A DNA stretch of 64,000 nucleotides from Ignavibacteria bacterium (GCA_016178625.1 JACOSX010000017.1:6213-70212), one strand, 5' to 3'; positions 2,209-29,237 are shown, numbered from the stretch's first letter. Translations and numbers: made by a program. The notes: a model not told the origin generated them from the sequence alone.

Positions 2209-3147
2209 TCACACAGTTGCCTTTCTGACCAGGAACGTACACGAGGAGGGTGAACTCTTGGGATTTATTTTTGCCTGTAGACTGAACTTCTGTCCTCGGT
2301 GATCGAACTCCCGAATGTGCATATTGACGCCTGTTCGCAGGTAGGAAATCGTATTCTTAATCGCTGAAACGAGAGAGGATTGAAGGTGACCACCCCTTCG
2401 AAGGGATTCATGAGGGGACTTCAAGGAGGGGAAGCTAGCATGTTCTGCCACCAATTTTGGAACGATCCATCCTCGGAATGAGGCTCCCTTAAAAATGAAG
2501 GAACCGTTTGTCTTGATTGATCCGTCGGATTCGATTACGGATTTGAATATAAGGCAATCCCAAAGCCGCAGTTCTCTGACGAGTCGATGGCAAATAACAT
2601 CTGCTGATGCCATGTAAACTTTGGAGAGCCTAGCCAAAGCTTCAAGTGACGGATCCAGTCGTCTCTCCTGAATTACCTCTCGAAGTGATGCTTCTGGAAG
2701 GAGTATCGCACCGGCAACAAAATTCGCGAAATCTTCTTCGACCCAGTACCGACTTCTGACAAATTTTCTTGTGGGAATCTCTTGGTCGATATCATAAAAA
2801 AAAGTATGGCCCACCTCATGTGCGATAGTGAATCGTTTTCTTAATTTAGGCACCTCGGCCCTGATCTTCATCAAAAATCCTCCACGCACCGGAATCAAGA
2901 TTCCTAAGTGAGAAGACGGCAATGCCTTTTCTGATTTTTCCAGGATTCTTCGACACTTGAACAGATTCTCAGGCTGGAATGGTGGTCCGTTCCATTGCTG
3001 CCTTTGCAATTCCTGGCAGATGTAGTCGCTAATCCGTTGCTTAGTTTGCGAAAGAAGTGACTGGCGATCCAGATAAACATAGGTCTCGCCCAGCCACGAT
3101 TTCGCGAGCCACTTGACGGAGGGATCGATCATTTTGGATTCTGTCAT
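2209..3147 (-). CDS. ImmA/IrrE family (COG2856) zinc metallopeptidase with a C-terminal extension
   Basis: HEVGH (HExxH) inside TIAHEVGHTFFYD, typical of the ImmA/IrrE/CapP family. 312 aa, about 150 aa longer than minimal ImmA. Its start overlaps the stop of the HD gene (ATGA). Confidence 0.75.
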   Translation of the reverse strand: MTESKMIDPSVKWLAKSWLGETYVYLDRQSLLSQTKQRISDYICQELQRQQWNGPPFQPENLFKCRRILEKSEKALPSSHLGILIPVRGGFLMKIRAEVPKLRKRFTIAHEVGHTFFYDIDQEIPTRKFVRSRYWVEEDFANFVAGAILLPEASLREVIQERRLDPSLEALARLSKVYMASADVICHRLVRELRLWDCLIFKSVIESDGSIKTNGSFIFKGASFRGWIVPKLVAEHASFPSLKSPHESLRRGGHLQSSLVSAIKNTISYLRTGVNMHIREFDHRGQKFSLQAKINPKSSPSSCTFLVRKATV

Positions 3148-4829
3148 GCTAAGCGAATTCTGGAGTACTCATCGAATGAGAGACTTATAACGCTAGACAA
3201 ATCGTCCGACACGGCGGGTATATTCACTCTTGCGGCGATTCCGAGTACTGAATCATGATCGAGATGTGTCAACTCAGGATGCTGTCCCGTCAATCTGTCC
3301 TCGAACCGGAGTAAATAATGCACGTGTGAGGGATTGAAAAAGGGGCGACAATCTTCAACGTCGCTCTGCAGTCTGAACATAATTTGACAATCACCATGCA
3401 CGAGAGTCTTGACAGAATCATCAATATCTGGATCCACAAATACATACATACACCATAATTCTTTGTGCTTCTGAGTGATTGATGATCTTATTTCTTCGGC
3501 CACACGCGAGGGCGCCTTTTCATCTAAAGGGCCAATGATGTGGCCATCGATATTCACTAACGCCTTAACTGCTTTGTATCCCATGCCCTCACCAGGACAA
3601 TAAATTACTACGCTTCCTTCAGGTAGGTCATTTTGTTTCTCAAGTGACCTCTCCGCTTGCCAACGTACTTCTTTTTTGGCAAGACGTTTGCGAAGAGTTT
3701 CCTTATCCGAATAAACTGGATCCTCTCCACTTTCCCCGCCGAACCGCAATCCGTATACAGGTTTGAAAAGCTTGTGTCTTGATAAATTGCTGGTGAGACG
3801 CTTGGCAATGCTGGTGCCTTCATTTTTCATGTACTCTAAAAGCGAGTCATCGGACATCGAATACAACCGGCTTTTATCAATCTTTTCCCTGTGAAACATG
3901 TCAGTTACTGCGGAGATAATCATCGCGGAGCTTGAAATTTTTGCATGGTGAAAATAGACCTTCTCCGCTAATGAATATCTGAGTCTGAGGAGGTGCAGGA
4001 GTTCGGATTGGACATCGCGTCTAATTTTTTTGGTCGACGGTTTGTGCAACCTCAGTACAAGCCGAGGTTTTCCATTATACGTCGTCACGTAAAGGTAGGA
4101 GAGAAATCGATCATCGTACCCCTCTTCAAGTCCACAAAAATAAAGATCCCTCCGGATGTAGTCCAGCAGATCGGCACACAAGGTGTTCCCAATTATATCT
4201 CCAATGAAGGGTCTGACGAGTCCTTCGACAGTGTGTTCCTCGATGGCTTGAATTGTTGCTCTAAGGTCCCGAAGCACCATTATTGGCTCGTATTGCGTGG
4301 CGCCGCTGTTACTCATTCGTTGTAAACTTTCCGATGTCCTAATGATTTGAGCAACCTCGCTCTTATCTCCCAAGAACCTCTCGGTCCGCTCGGCGTCTTT
4401 CCACTGGCTCATCAACAGGCCACCCTCGTCCTCGATTGTATGTCCGAAGGGGATGTGCGCGAGGTCATGCAACAGCGCACTCAGGCGAATCAGAAGATGA
4501 TCGTAATGGTCGATTTTGATATCAGGATATGGATTGCTATTAACCAATCTGACAAGTTTTTCGGCTACATGAAGACACCCAATAGCATGATCAAATCGTG
4601 TATGCATTGCGCATGGATAAACAAGATGCGTAGTACCTAACTGTCGCAGACCACGCAGACGCTGAAAACATTCAGTATCTATAATTCTTACTTCAAGCTC
4701 TGTAAGCATGATATCACCATGCACGGCGTCGCGAATAGTTTTGTGCGGCTTAAATAAACGCTCTAAATGGCCATCGGGATCTGCTTTCTTACTGTCAAAG
4801 ATAGTTGCCTGAGAAATAGATTTTCTCAT
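3144..4829 (-). CDS. SAMHD1-like HD-domain dNTP triphosphohydrolase (dGTPase family)
   Basis: IRDAVHGDIML..RIIDT..FQRLR..QLG, HTRFDHAIG (H..HD), LLHDLAHIPFGH and DLLDYIRRD line up with the conserved blocks of SAMHD1/Dgt/EF1143; 561 aa. Confidence 0.85.
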   Translation of the reverse strand: MRKSISQATIFDSKKADPDGHLERLFKPHKTIRDAVHGDIMLTELEVRIIDTECFQRLRGLRQLGTTHLVYPCAMHTRFDHAIGCLHVAEKLVRLVNSNPYPDIKIDHYDHLLIRLSALLHDLAHIPFGHTIEDEGGLLMSQWKDAERTERFLGDKSEVAQIIRTSESLQRMSNSGATQYEPIMVLRDLRATIQAIEEHTVEGLVRPFIGDIIGNTLCADLLDYIRRDLYFCGLEEGYDDRFLSYLYVTTYNGKPRLVLRLHKPSTKKIRRDVQSELLHLLRLRYSLAEKVYFHHAKISSSAMIISAVTDMFHREKIDKSRLYSMSDDSLLEYMKNEGTSIAKRLTSNLSRHKLFKPVYGLRFGGESGEDPVYSDKETLRKRLAKKEVRWQAERSLEKQNDLPEGSVVIYCPGEGMGYKAVKALVNIDGHIIGPLDEKAPSRVAEEIRSSITQKHKELWCMYVFVDPDIDDSVKTLVHGDCQIMFRLQSDVEDCRPFFNPSHVHYLLRFEDRLTGQHPELTHLDHDSVLGIAARVNIPAVSDDLSSVISLSFDEYSRIRLA

Positions 4830-13377: not shown

Positions 13378-13806
13378 GATGGGATCCTCACAAAGTTTTT
13401 AGATGGTAAAGATATTGAATTTTCTACTTCAATTCAAACTTCAATTCAAGCCGAAGTGAGGTTAGCAAACCACATTTTGATAAGCAAGAGCAATGCCGTA
13501 AACTCGATTGGTTCTGGACACACCCTCGCTGTTGCGAGGCCCTCAGCCCTCCGTAACAGACAGCCACGCTTCCTGCGGGGCTGTCTGCACCCCTGATCCG
13601 ATCGCACCCGGAACGTTCAACGCAGGTAAAACTGGATTGCATAGCGGTTGTGTGTTTGATCCGCTCAGCGACTAAGCCATGCGTTGTGGCGTTCCCTGCG
13701 ATGAGGTGTGCCATTGGGCTCCAACGAGGTTGGCAGGGGTGGAAATATCTTGAACGAACTAGGGATAGAAAGCAAAGGTTGTCGTTCGTTAGTTTGGATG
13801 TAGGGC

Positions 13807-14598
13807 TTAGAATAATTTGTACAAGTGTGACGGCTGGGGAATTTCTTTTATTTGAATGTGTTGGATTAATTTCTCAAGCTTATCCATGAAGGCGTGGAAA
13901 TCATCATGACGATCGACCGCGAAGCCCCAGTAAAACGATAGATTGTGTCCCAGAGAATAGGACTTGCCCTGCACGAGTTGAATATCCATCCAAGTGAGGT
14001 TAAACCAATTATCACGAAGCACCCCGTTTAACTGAATGATGGTTTCAGCATCGAGGTATCCTGCATAAGTACTGAGGGTAGAGATAAGCTCATTGTTAGC
14101 ACTCTGCGCTTGATCTGTAAGAAACTGTGAGACGTAGGGATATTCTAAGCCAAGATATGCCCGCCACGATGAATCGTATAAGGGCACTTGCGACCTCACG
14201 TCTATCTGGCCGAGACTGGAAATAAAAGATGAGTCCAATATCCTTTTGAAAAGGGCAATAAAGGTAAAACTGCTATCCCATTCAGAAGTGGACATGGGTT
14301 TGGTTCTGTTTACTGCATTAATCGAAAAAACGAGATGTCCAATTCCTTGGGCAATCTCATGATATGCGATTTGGCGGACTGTGTCTCTCTGTCTTTCTTG
14401 CCACTCGGAATGCCGGCGATTTTCATTGGAGGAAAGGACAGAAAGGATAGCAATAGTAACAGCAGTTAGAAGAGCAATTCTCCCCACTAGAGTAAGTCTT
14501 CTAAGACCCCTTTTTTGGGAGTTCCATGTATTACCTACAATCCCGACCACAGCAGTGACAAGGCCGGCCAAGTGCAAAAGCAAATCCCTATCAATCAA
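13807..14598 (-). CDS. hypothetical membrane-anchored protein (2 N-terminal TM helices plus a roughly 200-aa soluble domain)
   Basis: 263-aa ORF directly downstream of the TIR gene. Confidence 0.5.
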   Translation of the reverse strand: MIDRDLLLHLAGLVTAVVGIVGNTWNSQKRGLRRLTLVGRIALLTAVTIAILSVLSSNENRRHSEWQERQRDTVRQIAYHEIAQGIGHLVFSINAVNRTKPMSTSEWDSSFTFIALFKRILDSSFISSLGQIDVRSQVPLYDSSWRAYLGLEYPYVSQFLTDQAQSANNELISTLSTYAGYLDAETIIQLNGVLRDNWFNLTWMDIQLVQGKSYSLGHNLSFYWGFAVDRHDDFHAFMDKLEKLIQHIQIKEIPQPSHLYKLF

Positions 14599-14779
14599 AG
14601 CAGGCCCACGGGTGTACTACTATCTGCGTAGAGCCAAATTGGTTCAAGGATCCGATTGACTTGTTGGAAGTCAAACGTGTCGGCGTGAGTGAACATGAGC
14701 GCTTTCCGGATCCTCGAATGGTTGCGAACTTCCTTCAATGGTTTACGTCTGAATTGGTAGGGCATAAAGATTTACATCT

Positions 14780-15250
14780 TTAGCTCTTAGATGAGAGTAT
14801 AGCGATGCCAATGAGTACGCCAAGTGCTATCAGAAGTGCTCGGTCGTTCTCTTTCGCCATCCTGAGACGCTGAAGATAAGAGAGCAATGTCGATAAACTG
14901 CCAGGGGGATTGCCGAAGTCAAATGGGTTGTACTCTCGACCTTGTAGCATCGCTAAGCTTCGATCCGGTATACCAGGTTGAACGAGCGGAATGATCAACT
15001 TACCAGAGGCTTCTGCAAAACCGACTTCTTGTTGAACGTAAGGAGAGAGATGACTGGTAAGCGTGAGAAGAACTACAACCGCATCGGCGACTTGAATGGC
15101 TTGCTTTACCTTTCCAGCGAGTAAGGTTCCGGGCTGCGGATCGTGCTCAAACAGATATGTTTCTATCCCAATGCTTGTAGCATTAGACGCGATCCACTTA
15201 ACCCACTCTGAATCGCTGGCACTGTGACTGAGGAAAACTTTGTAACCCAT
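14780..15250 (-). CDS. TIR-domain protein with a C-terminal transmembrane anchor
   Basis: KVFLSHSASD N-terminal TIR motif and conserved Glu in YVQQEVGFA; C-terminal ALLIALGVLIGIAILSS helix; 156 aa. Confidence 0.7.
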   Translation of the reverse strand: MGYKVFLSHSASDSEWVKWIASNATSIGIETYLFEHDPQPGTLLAGKVKQAIQVADAVVVLLTLTSHLSPYVQQEVGFAEASGKLIIPLVQPGIPDRSLAMLQGREYNPFDFGNPPGSLSTLLSYLQRLRMAKENDRALLIALGVLIGIAILSSKS

Positions 15251-16101: not shown

Positions 16102-16452
16102 TCATACGCTCAGTACTTTGATGACAACACTGAGCAGCTCCTCTGGGTCATACGGCTTGGTGATGTAGTCATTCGCTCCAAGCTTTATGCACTCAAGCGC
16201 TGTTGAGATGTCCCGCATCACCGTGAGCATGATTACCCTCGGATGCTTATGAACTTTTTGCATCTCCTTAAGCACGGCCAAGCCATTCATCCGACGCATC
16301 TTCATATCGAGCAAAACAATATCGTAGTCAAGCTGCTTGATTTTCTCTAGGGCAACATCGCCATCATCTGCCACGTCCACCACAAAGTCTTCATTGGTGA
16401 ACTGCTCATAGAGTGACTGTCTCAATTCCACACTATCATCAACCACGAGCAT
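16102..16452 (-). CDS. stand-alone CheY-like response regulator receiver
   Basis: VVDDS...D...LLDMKM...K receiver signature; 116 aa. Confidence 0.8.
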   Translation of the reverse strand: MLVVDDSVELRQSLYEQFTNEDFVVDVADDGDVALEKIKQLDYDIVLLDMKMRRMNGLAVLKEMQKVHKHPRVIMLTVMRDISTALECIKLGANDYITKPYDPEELLSVVIKVLSV

Positions 16453-16522
16453 TTTTGGTTTTACCGTACGACTCTCCGATGGCGTAATGAAACAGAGCTA
16501 TCGTATACTGCCTTCGTTTGCC

Positions 16523-16888
16523 TCACGATGAAATCCGCTCGATTGTTGCCAGGAGGTCCTGGATGTCGTACGGTTTGCTGATAAAATCTTCGGCACCATA
16601 CTGCTTCGCTTCCATGGCTTGTTTGAGGTCAGCAAAAGCGGTCAGCATGATCACCTTCGTCTCGGGGCTTTGCTGCTTGATGAACCTCAGTACCTCCAAG
16701 CCGTCAACCATCGGCATGCGCACGTCGAGGATTGCAAGGTCAAAGTGTTCACCTTGGACGAGGGCTATGGCTTCACCACCACCGGCAGCGGTGGTGACCT
16801 CATAGCCAGCAGCCGAGAGCACGTCGCTCAAGGTACTCCTGATGTTCTCCTCATCATCAACTATGAGGAGGTGAAGGTTGTGAGCCAT
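16523..16888 (-). CDS. stand-alone CheY-like response regulator receiver
   Basis: LIVDDEENIR, ILDVRMP and KP receiver signature; 121 aa. Confidence 0.8.
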   Translation of the reverse strand: MAHNLHLLIVDDEENIRSTLSDVLSAAGYEVTTAAGGGEAIALVQGEHFDLAILDVRMPMVDGLEVLRFIKQQSPETKVIMLTAFADLKQAMEAKQYGAEDFISKPYDIQDLLATIERISS

Positions 16889-17053: not shown

Positions 17054-17206
17054 CCTCTACTTACCACAGGCTCGATAGTCTGGGCAGGCCGGGGTTCCGC
17101 ACAAGGGACAACCCCCTCGATCAACCTTGGGGCTTGTTCCGGAGAACCCTAACGCAGTGACCACCAGTGCAAGCACGGTAAGCAGCAGCGTGAGTTTCTG
17201 TTTCAT
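17054..17206 (-). CDS. small secreted Cys-rich peptide (50 aa), start overlaps the CsoR-family stop (ATGA)
   Basis: MKQKLTLLLTVLALVVTALGFSGTSPKVDRGGCPLCGTPACPDYRACGK; signal peptide plus CxxC and CxxxxxC; not in the ORF track. Confidence 0.4.
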
Positions 17207-17658
17207 CGTTTCATCTCCTTTCGAGGTTTTGGTTGTTGTACGGCGTTCAGTGAATTACGCAACCAGGCGAGCTCGTCGATGAGCCCCTTGAGATCCAACT
17301 TGGAAAATTCGTGACGTAAAAACTGCAATCGCTCAGCGTCATCGCAGTCCCCAGGACAGAGAGCGAGCCGTTCGGTGAGCACTTCAGCAAAATGTGCCTT
17401 GAGGTGGTCATTCAGGACGACGTAGAGAGCTTGATGGAGCCCTCGCTCAGCAGCTTTGAGTTGTCCATAGATTTCCTTCACTGACCGATCGCTGGTCATC
17501 ATTCGCTCAATGCCGTCGAGCTGACCTTTGACGAAGTGGATACGTTTGAGAAGCTCTCGTTTTTCTTTCTGACCAAGTGGCGGACGATCATTTTTCACGT
17601 TAGCAATGTAAGAACGTACAGGGGTGTTTGTCAAATTCTTAGGTGAAAGGCAACGCAC
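17203..17658 (-). CDS. CsoR/RcnR/FrmR family (DUF156) transcriptional regulator with atypical ligand residues and a C-terminal CPGDC
   Basis: LLKRIHFVKGQLDGIERMM helix typical of the family; the canonical Cys/His ligand positions are not conserved. Confidence 0.55.
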   Translation of the reverse strand: MRCLSPKNLTNTPVRSYIANVKNDRPPLGQKEKRELLKRIHFVKGQLDGIERMMTSDRSVKEIYGQLKAAERGLHQALYVVLNDHLKAHFAEVLTERLALCPGDCDDAERLQFLRHEFSKLDLKGLIDELAWLRNSLNAVQQPKPRKEMKR

Positions 17659-18192
17659 TCAGGCAGGGGCAACAGCGGGGGTAATTGATTTCACAAATGA
17701 GTTCACATCCCCGAGGCAGCATTCGCCCTTGGGATTCTTGATGTCGCAGGCGCAGTTGCCGGCTTTGACTTCTTTAGCAATCTGCAGGGAGGCTGTTGAT
17801 TTTCCTGTGCTGACGAGCTCTTGTTTGATTCGGGCGCGCGTCCAATCGAAGCAATAGCAGACGCTCACATCTTCGCCCTTGTCCTTCGCGAAAGCCTTAA
17901 CCCTAACATCATCGATGGTGAAATATGGAACACTTTCATTGGAGAAGTAGACAACTCTACAGTTCGAATCAGCGCAGTAATAGTATTGCACGTTTTGAAT
18001 TGAGCCAATTTTTTCGGGCTTCAAGAGATGCTCAAGGGTACGCTTTTGTACCTTCTTCGAGACCGTTCGTGAAACCGGACACTGGGCTCGTGCAGGGGCA
18101 GGAGTGGTATCCGTGACTAAACAACACTCATCACCGACTTTATGTTTATCTTCTGCAATTACCTCGATCGGTTGGACGCAGCAGTTATTCAT
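17659..18192 (-). CDS. vicinal-cysteine-rich hypothetical protein (CC, CxxC, CYC, CAC, CC motifs)
   Basis: Starts at MNNCCVQP (internal Met of track ORF 17659..18264), directly after the MerT-like stop. Confidence 0.45.
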   Translation of the reverse strand: MNNCCVQPIEVIAEDKHKVGDECCLVTDTTPAPARAQCPVSRTVSKKVQKRTLEHLLKPEKIGSIQNVQYYYCADSNCRVVYFSNESVPYFTIDDVRVKAFAKDKGEDVSVCYCFDWTRARIKQELVSTGKSTASLQIAKEVKAGNCACDIKNPKGECCLGDVNSFVKSITPAVAPA

Positions 18193-19247
18193 CGTTTTGT
18201 TCCTTTCGTTTGCGGAGAGCAACATTCGGACTTGCTTTTCTCTTTGCTCTCTTTGGAACAACATGCATCTTCATTTCCCGATGGTACACTTTCCCTTTTG
18301 AGTATTTGCAGATCGGGCATATTTCCTTTGCCAAGATACTTTTCACCAGCGGCAACGACATCCCGTTCAATCCGATGGTACAATGAATCATCAAGTTCGT
18401 TGAACGATTGGAGGGACAGGAAGCCGCGTTGGATTATCGCTTTGACATCTTCACGAAACGCCTGCTTGTCTTCGCCCGTTTTGAACTTAACATGTGGACT
18501 AACGCCCGTGAGAATCCGGTCAGCGATAACGCCCGCTTCCTCAATACTCAGCGCATCAACGTCTGAACCTTTATACCACATATCCTTCGCTTTGAAGTCC
18601 TCGAGAAGGGTAGTTCGATCCTGCTCACTTACTTGCTCAATCGGTAGTTCATGTCGAGAGAACACCGACTTGAGCACCGTTTGGTGTGCTGTGGCACTCG
18701 TGCCTTCATTCCATACCACAGCCATGACGGTTCCCCGCCGGTTCAGCCAAGCTCCTTTCACGGTTGAGTCTTTCATGAGATCAAGCAAGATGAACTTTGC
18801 CCTGCTGCCACAACCGATACTCGGCGCGGCATTACACACCAGAGGCACATCGAAGAAGCTAATGTCCCGGTCAAGGATCAGGGAACTGTTCTCGGAAGGC
18901 TTCGACGGTGAAGATGACGCTGTGAATCCAAAATATGGAAAGGCGATTGCGCCGGCCGCAACAAGAGTTGCGCACCACACGCCGATTTTGTTCCAGAGGC
19001 TGGAACTTTGAACCTTGCAGCTCCCGTCTTCACACTTCACCTCGCGTTTACGATAGGCGAAGTAGAACGCAAGACCGAGAAGAAGTACCGTAAGACCGAT
19101 CAGGTATGAGCGGTAAGGTTCAAGCATGGAAAACAGGCCGATACTACCAACCCCGATCAGTGCCAACGCCACGGGTCCGATACAACACAGGGACGCAATG
19201 ATTGCGGCAATTACTCCACCCGTGCTTGAGAAGGTTGCTTTACTCAT
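18189..19247 (-). CDS. MerT-like membrane transporter fused to a C-terminal domain ending in paired CC motifs
   Basis: First TM carries SLCCIGP (MerT-type vicinal Cys), the loop has CEDGSC, and three TM helices are followed by a soluble domain with CC...CC. Confidence 0.55.
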   Translation of the reverse strand: MSKATFSSTGGVIAAIIASLCCIGPVALALIGVGSIGLFSMLEPYRSYLIGLTVLLLGLAFYFAYRKREVKCEDGSCKVQSSSLWNKIGVWCATLVAAGAIAFPYFGFTASSSPSKPSENSSLILDRDISFFDVPLVCNAAPSIGCGSRAKFILLDLMKDSTVKGAWLNRRGTVMAVVWNEGTSATAHQTVLKSVFSRHELPIEQVSEQDRTTLLEDFKAKDMWYKGSDVDALSIEEAGVIADRILTGVSPHVKFKTGEDKQAFREDVKAIIQRGFLSLQSFNELDDSLYHRIERDVVAAGEKYLGKGNMPDLQILKRESVPSGNEDACCSKESKEKSKSECCSPQTKGTKR

Positions 19248-19264
19248 ATCCTATATTCTTTCAT

Positions 19265-19654
19265 TTAGTGTAACAGGGCTTGTTCTGTTGTTTCTTTTGC
19301 GGTGAACATCTTCAACAAGGCTTTGGTAAGTGTACGCTCCACCAAGGAGTAAAATATGGTTTGTCCTTCGCGACGTGCGGTCACGAGCTTTTTGTCTTTG
19401 AGTCTACGGAGGTGTTGAGACACAGCGGAATCAGTGATCTCCAACACTTCGGCGAGATCGCACACGCACATTTCCCGATGGGCATGAAGGAGATAGAGGA
19501 TACTAAGCCTCTGCGGATTCCCTACCGCAGAGAGGAGATCCGCCAAAGTGTGCAATGGTTTTTGTTGTGCAAGATTTCGTTTGATGAGGAGCAGCTCAGC
19601 CTGCGAAAACGTTGGACCAACACAGAGCTTGCCGTCGATGTAGATTTTCTTCAT
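19265..19654 (-). CDS. ArsR/SmtB family metalloregulator
   Basis: CVCDLAEVLEITDSAVSQHLRRL metal-binding and HTH signature. Confidence 0.8.
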   Translation of the reverse strand: MKKIYIDGKLCVGPTFSQAELLLIKRNLAQQKPLHTLADLLSAVGNPQRLSILYLLHAHREMCVCDLAEVLEITDSAVSQHLRRLKDKKLVTARREGQTIFYSLVERTLTKALLKMFTAKETTEQALLH

Positions 19655-26644: not shown

Positions 26645-28138
26645 ATGGAGAAAGAAAAATCGGTCGGTATTTGGATTAGAGTCTCGACAGAAGATCAAGC
26701 CAGAGGTGAAAGCCCGGAGCATCACGAGAAGCGCGCCCGCTACTACGCGGAATCGAAGGGATGGTCTATCAAAGAAGTCTATCGTCTTGAGGCGGTTAGT
26801 GGTAAGTCGGTGATGGAACATCCCGAGACGAAACGGATGCTGGCTGACGTACGATCGCACAAGATTACAGGAATTATCTTTTCCAAGTTGGCACGATTAG
26901 CTCGTAACACAAGAGAGCTTCTGGACTTCGCCGATATCTTTCGTGAATGTGACGCAGACCTAGTAAGTTTGCAAGAATCGATTGACACTTCAACCCCAGC
27001 TGGACGGCTCTTCTATACTATGATTGCTGCTATGGCGCAGTGGGAGCGAGAAGAAATAGCGGAACGTGTAGCAGCGTCAGTGCCGATACGTGCCAAGCTT
27101 GGCAAACCCCTCGGAGGTGCTGCTCCGTTTGGATACCAATGGGTAGACAAAAAACTGCTGATTGATCCAAAGGAAGCTCCGGTACGAAAACGAGTCTACG
27201 AACTATTCCTTGAACATCGACGCAAGAGAACGGTCGCCCGTCTACTGAACGAATCAGGATATCGCACCCGGAATGGTGGCCGGTTCTCGGATACCACAGT
27301 GGATCGTCTCTTGCGTGATCCAGTAGCCAAAGGGAAACGCCGAATGAACTATACGAAGAGCTTGGGACAGAAGAAAAAATGGATCATAAAGCCTGAGGAC
27401 GAATGGGTACATATAAATGTTGAGCCGATTGTGAGCGATGAGGTATGGGCACACTGCAACCAAATCCTGGGTGAACAATACCAAAAGCAGAATCGGCGCC
27501 CGGCTGAACACCTTTTTACCGGTATAGTGCTCTGTCACTGCGGTAACAAAATGTACGTCCCACACAAATCGCTGAAGTACACGTGCTACAAATGCCACAA
27601 TAAAATCCCCACCTCTGACTTGGAAGGGATATACCATGAGCAACTGAAAACGTTCTTTTTTTCAAATGACGAAATTTCAACTTACCTGAATAAGGCTGAT
27701 GAACTTATAAATGATCGGCAAAATCTATTCGTTTCACTTGAGGAGGAAGCCAAGAGGCTAAAGCGAGAGATGGACAAGTTGGTCCGACTACACCTTGATG
27801 GAGAGATGCCTAAAGAGGGATTCGGGAACCACTACCGGCCGCTGGAAGACAGGCTGAAACAAATAGAGAATCAACTCCCCGAACTGCAGGGTGAGATCGA
27901 TTACCTCAAAATCCAGTATCTATCAAGCGACGAGGTACTTAGCGAGGCTAAGGATCTACATCAGCGATGGCCTACACTCGAACTTTCTGAAAAAAGAAGT
28001 ATCGTAGAAACAATCACCCAAAAAATAACTATTAGCAATGACGAGGTTTCAATCAATCTATCGTACATGCCATCCTCGGCAGAAATGGCAACAGAAATGC
28101 AACACAACGTCAGGGATTCATTGCACACACCAGCATGA
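26645..28138 (+). CDS. large serine recombinase (resolvase/invertase catalytic domain, recombinase domain, zinc ribbon, coiled coil)
   Basis: [11 protein letters not shown] catalytic-Ser motif, CHCGNKMY...CYKCHNK zinc ribbon; 497 aa; 3' end overlaps the comM remnant. Confidence 0.85.
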
Positions 28139-29171
28139 AGTTGGCTGGATAATCGATCGACATTTTCGACCGGCTGATCGTAACGTGAGCATCCTCCAGA
28201 GGTTGACGAAGAACTTCGAGGACGTTGCGGGCGAATTCCGGAAGCTCATCGAGAAATAACACGCCATGGTAAGAAAGAGAAATCTCGCCCGGTCGAGGCA
28301 CTGTTCCACCGCCGACAAGAGCGCTATCGGAGATTGTATGATGCGGAGAGCGGAATGGACGCGTTGAGATCAGCGCTGAGTCGGGCGGCAACAGACCGGC
28401 GACAGAATGAATCTTGGTTGTCTCAATCGCCTCGTCAAATGTGAGAGGGGGGAGAATGGTTGGCAAGCGTTTGGCAAGCATAGTTTTCCCGGACCCGGGC
28501 GGACCGATCATGATGATGTTATGTCCCCCTGCAGCAGCTACCTCCAGAGCGCGCTTCACATTCTCCTGTCCTTTGACATCGTCAAAGTCGATTGGATATC
28601 GCTGATCCTGATTGAACACTTCACGGAGATCAACACGAAACGGCTTGAGCATTGTGTGTTCGCCATTGAGGAAGGAGACCGTTTCAACAAGAGACTCCAT
28701 CGGATAGACTTCAAGTTCTCCGACCATCGCCGCTTCCTTCGCGTTCTCTCGTGGAACGATCATGCCGCGGATGCCATTCTTTCTTACCTCAACCGCGATC
28801 GGCAGGGTTCCATGCACGGGGCGGAGAGTGCCGTCGAGAGCGAGTTCCCCGAGCATGACGAAGTCTTTCAATATGTCGGGAAGTACTTGGCCTGTCGCCG
28901 CGAGAATACCAACGGCGATCGGGAGATCGAACGCCGAGCCTTCTTTCTTAATGTCGGCAGGCGCGAGGTTCACCGTGATGCGTTGACCCGGAGGGAATCG
29001 AAAGCCTGTTGTTTTAATGGCTGCATAGACGCGATCGCGGCTCTCCTTCACGGCATTATCCGGCAATCCAACAACATTAAACGCATTGCTGGATGCCACA
29101 ATGTGTGTCTCTACCTGAATGAGATGTGCCTTGATGCCTATTGTTGAAGCGCTGAGTGCGTGAGAAAACAT
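28110..29171 (-). pseudogene. comM: comM/yifB Mg-chelatase-like AAA+ gene, truncated after the ...LVCAMNP sensor motif (C-terminal third missing)
   Basis: N-terminal [21 protein letters not shown], Walker A GPPGSGKT, Walker [10 protein letters not shown]; ends at AMNP, where full-length ComM continues with a Cys-rich region. Confidence 0.7.
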
Positions 29172-29237
29172 AGGAACAATTCCTCCCGGAAGTTCTTTCA
29201 ACATACGGAACGGATGAATGAACTGCAACTCGAAAAA

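Follow-up and report, generated by a model that had tools for sequence, protein, structure and literature searches.

The stretch of DNA analysed here, 64,000 nucleotides from an Ignavibacteria bacterium (GCA_016178625.1, JACOSX010000017.1:6213-70212; hereafter the window), contains on its minus strand a short gene (14780..15250, stop codon included, ATG start) for a protein of 156 amino acids (aa) that joins a TIR domain to a single C-terminal transmembrane (TM) helix. We refer to this protein, and to the family of relatives that share its architecture, as TIR-TM. Downstream on that strand, after a gap of 181 bp (14599..14779), comes the gene (13807..14598, TTG start) for a protein of 263 aa with a pair of TM helices (hereafter 2TM). 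An initial annotation of the locus had proposed that the two proteins form a membrane-tethered defence or signalling pair. The comparisons described below separated the two genes and favour, at about even chances, the view that TIR-TM is an anti-phage effector that acts alone.

The TIR-TM gene and its predicted structure

The TIR-TM open reading frame (ORF) is supported by Pfam matches, homologs, an AlphaFold2 model and Foldseek comparisons. The protein starts with MGYKVFLSHSASD..., with the segment KVFLSHSASD running from residue 4, and matches the Pfam TIR_2 family (PF13676) over residues 5–113 (E=1.2e-15; 58.5 bits, cut-off 28). This envelope, together with the modelled alternation of strands and helices, places the TIR domain at 14912..15238 on the minus strand. 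Matches to more specialized TIR models were weaker: ThsB_TIR reached 19 bits, below its cut-off of 21.2, CAP12-PCTIR_TIR reached 17 bits, also below cut-off, and the PADLOC ThsB models aligned only weakly and in part (ThsB1, E=7.5e-8). No named family in Pfam, NCBIfam or PADLOC corresponds to this architecture.

Sequence reading, the family alignment and alignments to PDB entries place a glutamate, Glu75 (codon GAA at 15026..15028, minus strand), at the catalytic position of the domain. It is the Glu within YVQQEVGFAEASGK and closes the motif Y71-V-Q-Q-E75, which corresponds to the signature of enzymatic TIR domains, aromatic-x-x-x-Glu on helix alpha-C. In PDB sequence and profile searches, Y71...E75 aligned with the W...E of the WCxYE motif in TLR TIR domains, and the profile search also retrieved the NAD+ hydrolase AbTir. 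The catalytic Glu642 of SARM1 occupies the same W-x-x-x-E context. In TIR domains that cleave NAD+, the W/Y-x-x-x-E glutamate is necessary, but not sufficient, for activity (PMC7075850).

The C-terminal TM helix (residues 134–156; 14783..14851, minus strand) was assigned from hydropathy and from the modelled helix. It is the sole strongly hydrophobic segment of the protein (Kyte–Doolittle peak 2.6 over 17 residues), and a basic linker (RLRMAKENDR) leads into it. By the positive-inside rule, the sequence predicts a protein anchored by its tail, with the TIR domain on the cytoplasmic side.

The AlphaFold2 model (pLDDT 87.9), computed on an alignment of 39 family members (A1), consists of a TIR-type, flavodoxin-like alpha/beta core and a single long helix (residues 115–154) that includes the TM segment. 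Strands at residues 3–8, 29–32, 57–62 and 85–90 alternate with helices. Foldseek searches of PDB libraries matched the model to many TIR structures with a probability of 1.00 and TM-scores up to 0.71; the top matches were SARM1, the SPARTA TIR-APAZ protein, AbTir, TIR-STING, Cat1 and SpbK, with E-values of about 1e-6 to 1e-5. More distant matches included the N-glycosidases BcmB (a CMP N-glycosidase) and DNPH1 (E~1e-5). The compact TIR domain from residue 4, the glutamate at the catalytic position and the single C-terminal TM helix, all of which the initial annotation had read from the sequence, are therefore upheld by the Pfam match, by the alignment with the glutamate of solved TIR domains and by the conservation described in the next section.

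Conservation and distribution of the TIR-TM family

A word-indexed homolog search over 5.8 billion proteins retrieved an identical (100%) protein from an Ignavibacteria metagenome-assembled genome (MAG) at NCBI, and, in addition, at least 187 homologs, most of them 154–162 aa long and 55–70% identical to TIR-TM. The length is tightly conserved in the family, typically at about 157 aa, and its members extend over many phyla of bacteria and archaea. Relatives at the 55–70% identity level come from Ignavibacteria, Acidobacteriota, Dehalococcoidia, Stahlbacteria and Methanosarcinales, and identities this high across such distant bacterial and archaeal groups indicate that the family has spread horizontally.

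Alignment A1 contains 20 invariant positions, including F6, S8, H9, D13, the BB-loop residues P40-G41, V72, Q74, E75 and G77. Within the motif Y-V-Q-Q-E-(I/V)-G, E75 is invariant in all 39 sequences and Y71 is conserved in at least 90%. All 39 members also carry the C-terminal hydrophobic helix, and an equivalent segment was found in 62 of the 72 TIR-TM loci that were collected for the neighbourhood comparisons below. The helix keeps its position while its sequence varies, as expected for a membrane anchor; a basic linker stands before it, and only two to five residues follow.

A subfamily of longer TIR proteins (244–273 aa; P0041, P0057, P0062, P0072, P0104 and P0112) has a soluble domain in place of the TM helix. 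This domain is about 100 aa long and conserved, with the sequence LSPAEIEIL...LYRLTGRGFDLRK. Its presence where the anchor would otherwise stand suggests that the C-terminal module of the family is an exchangeable part for localisation or sensing.

The downstream 2TM gene is a chance neighbour

As the initial annotation had described, the downstream gene encodes a 263-aa protein on the same strand, and hydropathy confirmed two N-terminal hydrophobic helices, at residues 4–24 and 34–59. The TTG start codon is backed by the N-termini of homologs. The remainder of the protein is an all-helical soluble domain that matched only generic four-helix bundles in PDB libraries and does not have a SIR2, SLOG, Macro or STING fold. 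No match to the protein was found in Pfam, PADLOC or NCBIfam, nor any link to the Macro, SLOG, SIR2, STING or caspase-like effectors that answer the products of TIR enzymes.

The 2TM family is sparse and divergent. The word-indexed search yielded one homolog, 39% identical and located on a 1.5-kb contig with uninformative neighbours, and an exhaustive HMMER search through 1.84 billion cluster representatives yielded 91 members at E<=1e-3, of which 15 reached E<=1e-10. The majority have 230–280 aa and align from the N-terminal TM region on. Their alignment (A2) shows the pattern VGIxGNTW...KKGxxKLTxxG across both TM helices and KYxxYLDxET in the soluble part, and no member has a meaningful Pfam match. 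The public protein collection contains no identical full-length entry for the 2TM protein; the closest is a 143-aa protein that is 99% identical to residues 121–263, which may reflect a shorter gene call or a truncated contig.

Co-occurrence of the two genes, which the initial annotation had itself named as a check, was examined in 72 TIR-TM loci and in nine loci that carry 2TM relatives. The former comprise the window, L002–L015 from individual homolog look-ups and L016–L072 from a genome scan with one genome per species, and their TIR-TM proteins form 62 distinct lineages at 95% identity. The latter comprise L001 and L073–L080, the last eight obtained via a tightened 2TM alignment. Searched against six-frame translations of the 72 TIR-TM loci, the 2TM profile matched in the window only and in none of the 61 further lineages. 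Loosening the threshold to E<=10 and disabling the filters, with all called neighbours as targets, again recovered the window's own gene alone. In the reciprocal search, the TIR-TM profile found no match in the nine loci with 2TM relatives. Adjacency of the two genes is thus limited to 1 of 62 lineages, and the neighbours of the 2TM relatives are mutually unrelated, with genes for PIN-like, MutS-like, Ser/Thr kinase, DNA ligase, NnrS, histidine phosphatase and amino-acid permease proteins.

These results decide against a dedicated pair of genes for defence or signalling, with the 2TM protein as sensor or effector. Such a pair is suggested by the shared strand, the short distance and the membrane location of both proteins, and it loosely recalls type II Thoeris, which combines a TIR protein with a TM-containing effector. 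There is also no terminator-like site between the two genes, so they may be co-transcribed, at the window locus only. Against this stand the absence of the 2TM gene from every other TIR-TM locus, the failure of the reciprocal search, the generic helical bundle in the place of a recognizable effector domain and the disparity in family size, with at least 187 homologs of TIR-TM against one of 2TM by the same method. On its own stated terms the proposal of the 2TM protein as partner or sensor falls, because the downstream gene is not co-conserved with TIR-TM homologs, and we consider the pair very improbable and close to refuted. The 2TM gene is an unrelated chance neighbour of TIR-TM. The case advises caution, as two adjacent membrane-protein genes resembled a pair and comparative genomics says otherwise.

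Other candidate partners were rejected as well. An ORF of 56 aa in the gap between the two genes (14595..14765, minus strand) ends in a stop codon that overlaps the TTG at which the 2TM gene begins. It is doubtful as a gene; none of the fetched loci contained a homolog, and it matched no family. Neither this ORF nor a 119-aa single-TM ORF upstream of TIR-TM had a homolog in any TIR-TM locus. Small downstream membrane proteins in L010, L020, L023, L026 and L027 share no sequence similarity, and their frequency does not exceed the expectation for membrane proteins, which excludes them as one conserved component. On the 3′ side of the 2TM gene, a 430-bp non-coding gap (13378..13806) is locally GC-rich and contains a long near-perfect hairpin. 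Its predicted folding is modestly more stable than that of shuffled sequences (z=-2.3 on the minus strand, z=-3.4 on the plus strand), and with no Rfam or tRNA match a structured RNA was not retained as a candidate.

No constant partner and no Thoeris effector

To survey the neighbourhoods, four genes on each side of every TIR-TM gene were clustered and then analysed with Pfam and PADLOC scans and profile searches. No recurrent partner gene of TIR-TM emerged across the 62 lineages. In the window, the scanned neighbours contain no SIR2, SLOG, STING, SAVED, cNMP-binding or cyclase domain, in agreement with the initial annotation, which had seen no SIR2, SLOG, STING or cyclase gene nearby.

This bears on a reading in which TIR-TM works like ThsB and produces a messenger derived from ADP-ribose (ADPR) that activates an effector encoded elsewhere. 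The weak, partial PADLOC ThsB match and the sub-threshold ThsB_TIR score speak for it. Known signalling TIRs, however, are encoded beside their effectors, and the window neighbourhood contains no ThsA-type or other known effector, nor does one recur across the 62 lineages; we regard a signal generator of this kind as distinctly improbable. The two-gene architecture of Thoeris is likewise absent, with no SIR2-SLOG, TM-Macro or other ThsA type among the window neighbours. The TIR domain with its weak similarity to ThsB models and the adjacent 2TM protein superficially resemble a type II Thoeris system, but type II ThsA combines TM helices with a Macro domain, whereas the 2TM protein is an all-alpha bundle without Macro, SLOG or SIR2 domains and is not co-conserved. 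We reject a type II Thoeris-like pair on the grounds of this all-alpha domain, the lack of a PADLOC match and the lack of co-occurrence. The resemblance to the Pycsar effector PycTIR and to the TIR effectors of CBASS is limited to the TIR fold and the weak CAP12-PCTIR_TIR match; unlike in those systems, TIR-TM and its neighbours lack a cyclase, a SAVED domain or a cNMP-binding domain.

Restriction–modification loci and other defence contexts

Relatives of TIR-TM are found mostly in defence or restriction–modification (RM) contexts. In about 19 of the 62 lineages, an RM gene lies within two genes on the same strand, a raw count that is a lower bound, since many contigs are short. Three arrangements can be distinguished.

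In the first arrangement, TIR-TM follows a type IIG restriction-methyltransferase. Among the closest relatives of the window protein, the gene starts 6–9 bp after a type IIG gene encoding 908–1014 aa (L004–L007 and L008/L009), and in L016, L017 and L014/L019 it is located one to three genes downstream of the type IIG enzyme. The order, type IIG gene, zero to three variable genes and TIR-TM, spans L004 3178..6474, L008 2950..6474, L016 5752..10474, L017 779..5796 and L014 990..6480. Sequence identities of the TIR and type IIG proteins co-vary, at 87% and 68%, respectively, between L014 and L017 versus about 57–60% and 38–41% in distant pairs, which points to a long-lived linkage. In the second arrangement, represented by L018, TIR-TM starts 2 bp after a gene for a methyltransferase–Mrr fusion. 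The third is typical of a distant clade (25–35% identity, mostly from archaea), in which the gene is inserted between type I hsdM and hsdS, often overlapping them by a few bases (L052, L065). Loci of this type are L052 (8482..11805), L065, L055, L066, L047, L059, L060, L063, L067, L044 and L048. The distant clade also adjoins genes for YhcG/DUF1016 proteins (PADLOC candidate PDC-S02) and SLFN_AlbA_2 proteins.

Beyond RM operons, TIR-TM genes occur next to Shedu SduA_C together with PIN/MazE genes, next to a Gabija-like combination of OLD-TOPRIM and UvrD genes, and in a nuclease/helicase island. In an actinomycete MAG (L021 6433..10510), TIR-TM starts 1 bp after a gene for a 1188-aa fusion of prokaryotic E2, ThiF/E1, JAB and patatin domains. 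L010 (2508..6474) belongs to a conjugative element with a TraG/TrwB-like gene and contains amidohydrolase, metallophosphatase and metallo-beta-lactamase-fold genes followed by TIR-TM; the metallo-beta-lactamase-fold protein weakly matches the anti-Pycsar protein Apyc1.

The RM linkage raises what we see as the most interesting alternative to an effector acting alone: the tail-anchored TIR proteins might be an unrecognised class of RM-linked guardians, transcribed together with RM genes (type IIG, type II-fusion or type I), poised at the membrane and kept inactive by, or co-regulated with, the RM enzyme until a phage inhibits restriction. The trigger for NAD+ destruction would then be a phage that blocks restriction, or DNA injection through the envelope, and the window copy would have lost its RM partner and, as a mobile orphan, would still function by itself. 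The recurrence of RM genes in three kinds of arrangement, gaps that are often only 2–9 bp or overlaps, and the co-varying identities with the type IIG enzyme, indicative of a long-lived module, are consistent with this idea, and the anticodon nuclease PrrC, embedded in a type IC locus, provides a precedent (PMC12707154). The likeness extends to position, as many TIR-TM family members are located inside RM operons, including in the hsdM/hsdS slot, a site of the kind that prrC takes up in EcoprrI (PMC12707154). In contrast to TIR-TM, PrrC carries an ABC-ATPase-like domain and no TIR domain. Most lineages, moreover, have no nearby RM gene, and the window belongs to them, with no match to type IIG, HsdM, HsdS or other tested RM profiles in its 64 kb. 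RM loci are also known hotspots for the accretion of defence genes, and YhcG and AlbA_2 genes fill the same slots, so that the adjacency may reflect island structure and not function. On balance, we consider a guardian role unlikely. If it were correct, the recurrence of the gene inside RM operons of three different types would widen the concept of an "RM guardian" from PrrC and PARIS to effectors that deplete NAD.

A role outside defence, as a membrane-bound TIR-like scaffold or as a nucleotide or nucleoside N-glycosidase of the deoxyribosyltransferase/DNPH1 fold that acts in cell physiology, is suggested by other observations. Some sources label relatives of TIR-TM "nucleoside 2-deoxyribosyltransferase", Foldseek retrieved BcmB and DNPH1, and in the complete chromosome of the archaeon Methanosarcinales Met12 the gene stands among housekeeping genes. 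The TIR_2 match, however, far exceeds the sub-threshold score of 13.8 bits against Nuc_deoxyrib_tr, and the patchy, horizontally spread distribution and the predominance of defence-rich neighbourhoods argue against a physiological function, which we judge improbable.

A candidate single-protein effector

We therefore favour, at roughly even odds, a reading in which TIR-TM is a stand-alone, tail-anchored protein that acts alone as an abortive-infection effector against phages and probably consumes NAD; this builds on sequence, the structural model and analogy with characterized systems. The domain identity and fold, the conservation of Glu75 and of the anchor, the lack of a constant partner and the frequent residence in RM loci and defence islands are established by the comparisons above. 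Action without a partner is supported by the absence of a recurrent neighbour across the 62 lineages and by precedents among single-protein TIR systems, some of which contain little beyond a TIR domain, protect Escherichia coli and need their catalytic residues to do so (PMC11350192). By analogy, NADase activity, activation by clustering, a role in defence and an infection-linked trigger can be proposed for TIR-TM.

In the proposed mechanism, the single C-terminal helix would hold the cytoplasmic TIR domain at the inner face of the membrane and confine TIR domains to the membrane plane. An infection-linked cue would drive their clustering and head-to-tail assembly, which could complete a composite active site around Glu75. 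The assembled site might then hydrolyse NAD+ or yield ADPR-type products, and the infected cell would be halted.

The closest functional parallel is SpbK of Bacillus subtilis, a single TIR gene on ICEBs1 encoding an NADase that becomes active once a phage portal protein brings its TIR domains into clusters (PMC12847820). Like TIR-TM, SpbK is a single TIR protein carried as cargo of an integrative element without a dedicated partner gene, Foldseek matched its TIR filament structure (9phb) to TIR-TM, and its activation by clustering (PMC12847820) is the mechanism proposed here. SpbK differs in that it is soluble and has an N-terminal domain that binds the portal, whereas TIR-TM consists of the TIR domain and a C-terminal anchor only, and no relationship between the two sequences could be detected apart from the TIR fold. 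The single-protein TIR systems (PMC11350192) are similarly short, amount essentially to a TIR domain and protect alone with a requirement for catalytic residues. Going by their description, TIR-TM differs in its origin from uncultured environmental bacteria and archaea and in its conserved tail anchor.

Several observations weigh against an effector that acts alone in defence. No recognised defence gene is adjacent to the window copy in Pfam and PADLOC scans, and the gene in Methanosarcinales Met12 has the housekeeping surroundings mentioned above. Cultured plasmids yielded one weak hit to the family, annotated phages none and IMG/VR one contig, a near-absence from all three. Finally, the genome scan that supplied L016–L072 used the pattern YVQQE[IV]GxA, so that conservation of YVQQE in these loci is partly circular; alignment A1 provides independent evidence for the motif.

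TIR domains in defence and single-gene TIR systems are already known, and the new part is a minimal, tail-anchored family that spans bacteria and archaea and is embedded in RM loci. Literature searches turned up no paper that describes this family. If TIR-TM is an active defence protein, a bare TIR domain with a tail anchor would rank among the smallest known TIR immune modules, shared by bacteria and archaea, and would offer a clean system to study how a TIR protein without a sensor detects infection and what membrane tethering adds. The family itself is a reasonable target for experiments.

A probable integrative element in comM

The initial annotation had placed the TIR gene as cargo on a putative element, and the gene content of the window makes this probable. 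A large serine recombinase gene (26645..28138, plus strand; Pfam Resolvase, Recombinase and Zn_ribbon_recom) marks one end and abuts a truncated comM gene of the Mg-chelatase/ChlI family (28110..29228, minus strand). The Pfam Mg_chelatase match of the latter covers only positions 1–158 of 207 and stops at the last residue of the ORF, whose end adjoins the recombinase gene, so that comM is cut within its ATPase domain. The recombinase next to the interrupted target indicates that an integrative element inserted in comM. The left part of the element encodes a LexA/S24 repressor, an AEP-type primase, a DUF932 protein, a PD-(D/E)XK nuclease, a TrwB-type coupling protein, a SymE-like protein and RadC; no left boundary was detected in the window. 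Between these genes and the recombinase lie a UbiA prenyltransferase operon, a metal-handling cluster, genes for receiver domains and the TIR-TM and 2TM genes. Taken together, the locus is probably an integrative, possibly mobilisable, element in comM with TIR-TM as cargo.

Among the remaining genes, the metal-handling cluster (17203..19654, minus strand) encodes an ArsR-type regulator, a 352-aa MerT-like protein, a zf_CopZ protein and a CsoR-type repressor, and is followed by two stand-alone receiver-domain genes at 16102..16888. Further left, at 2209..4829 on the minus strand, a gene for an IrrE-like M78 peptidase overlaps an upstream 561-aa gene with HD and HD_assoc_2 domains by 4 bp; this pair, near the LexA/S24 and primase genes, may form a module that serves the element in regulation or defence.

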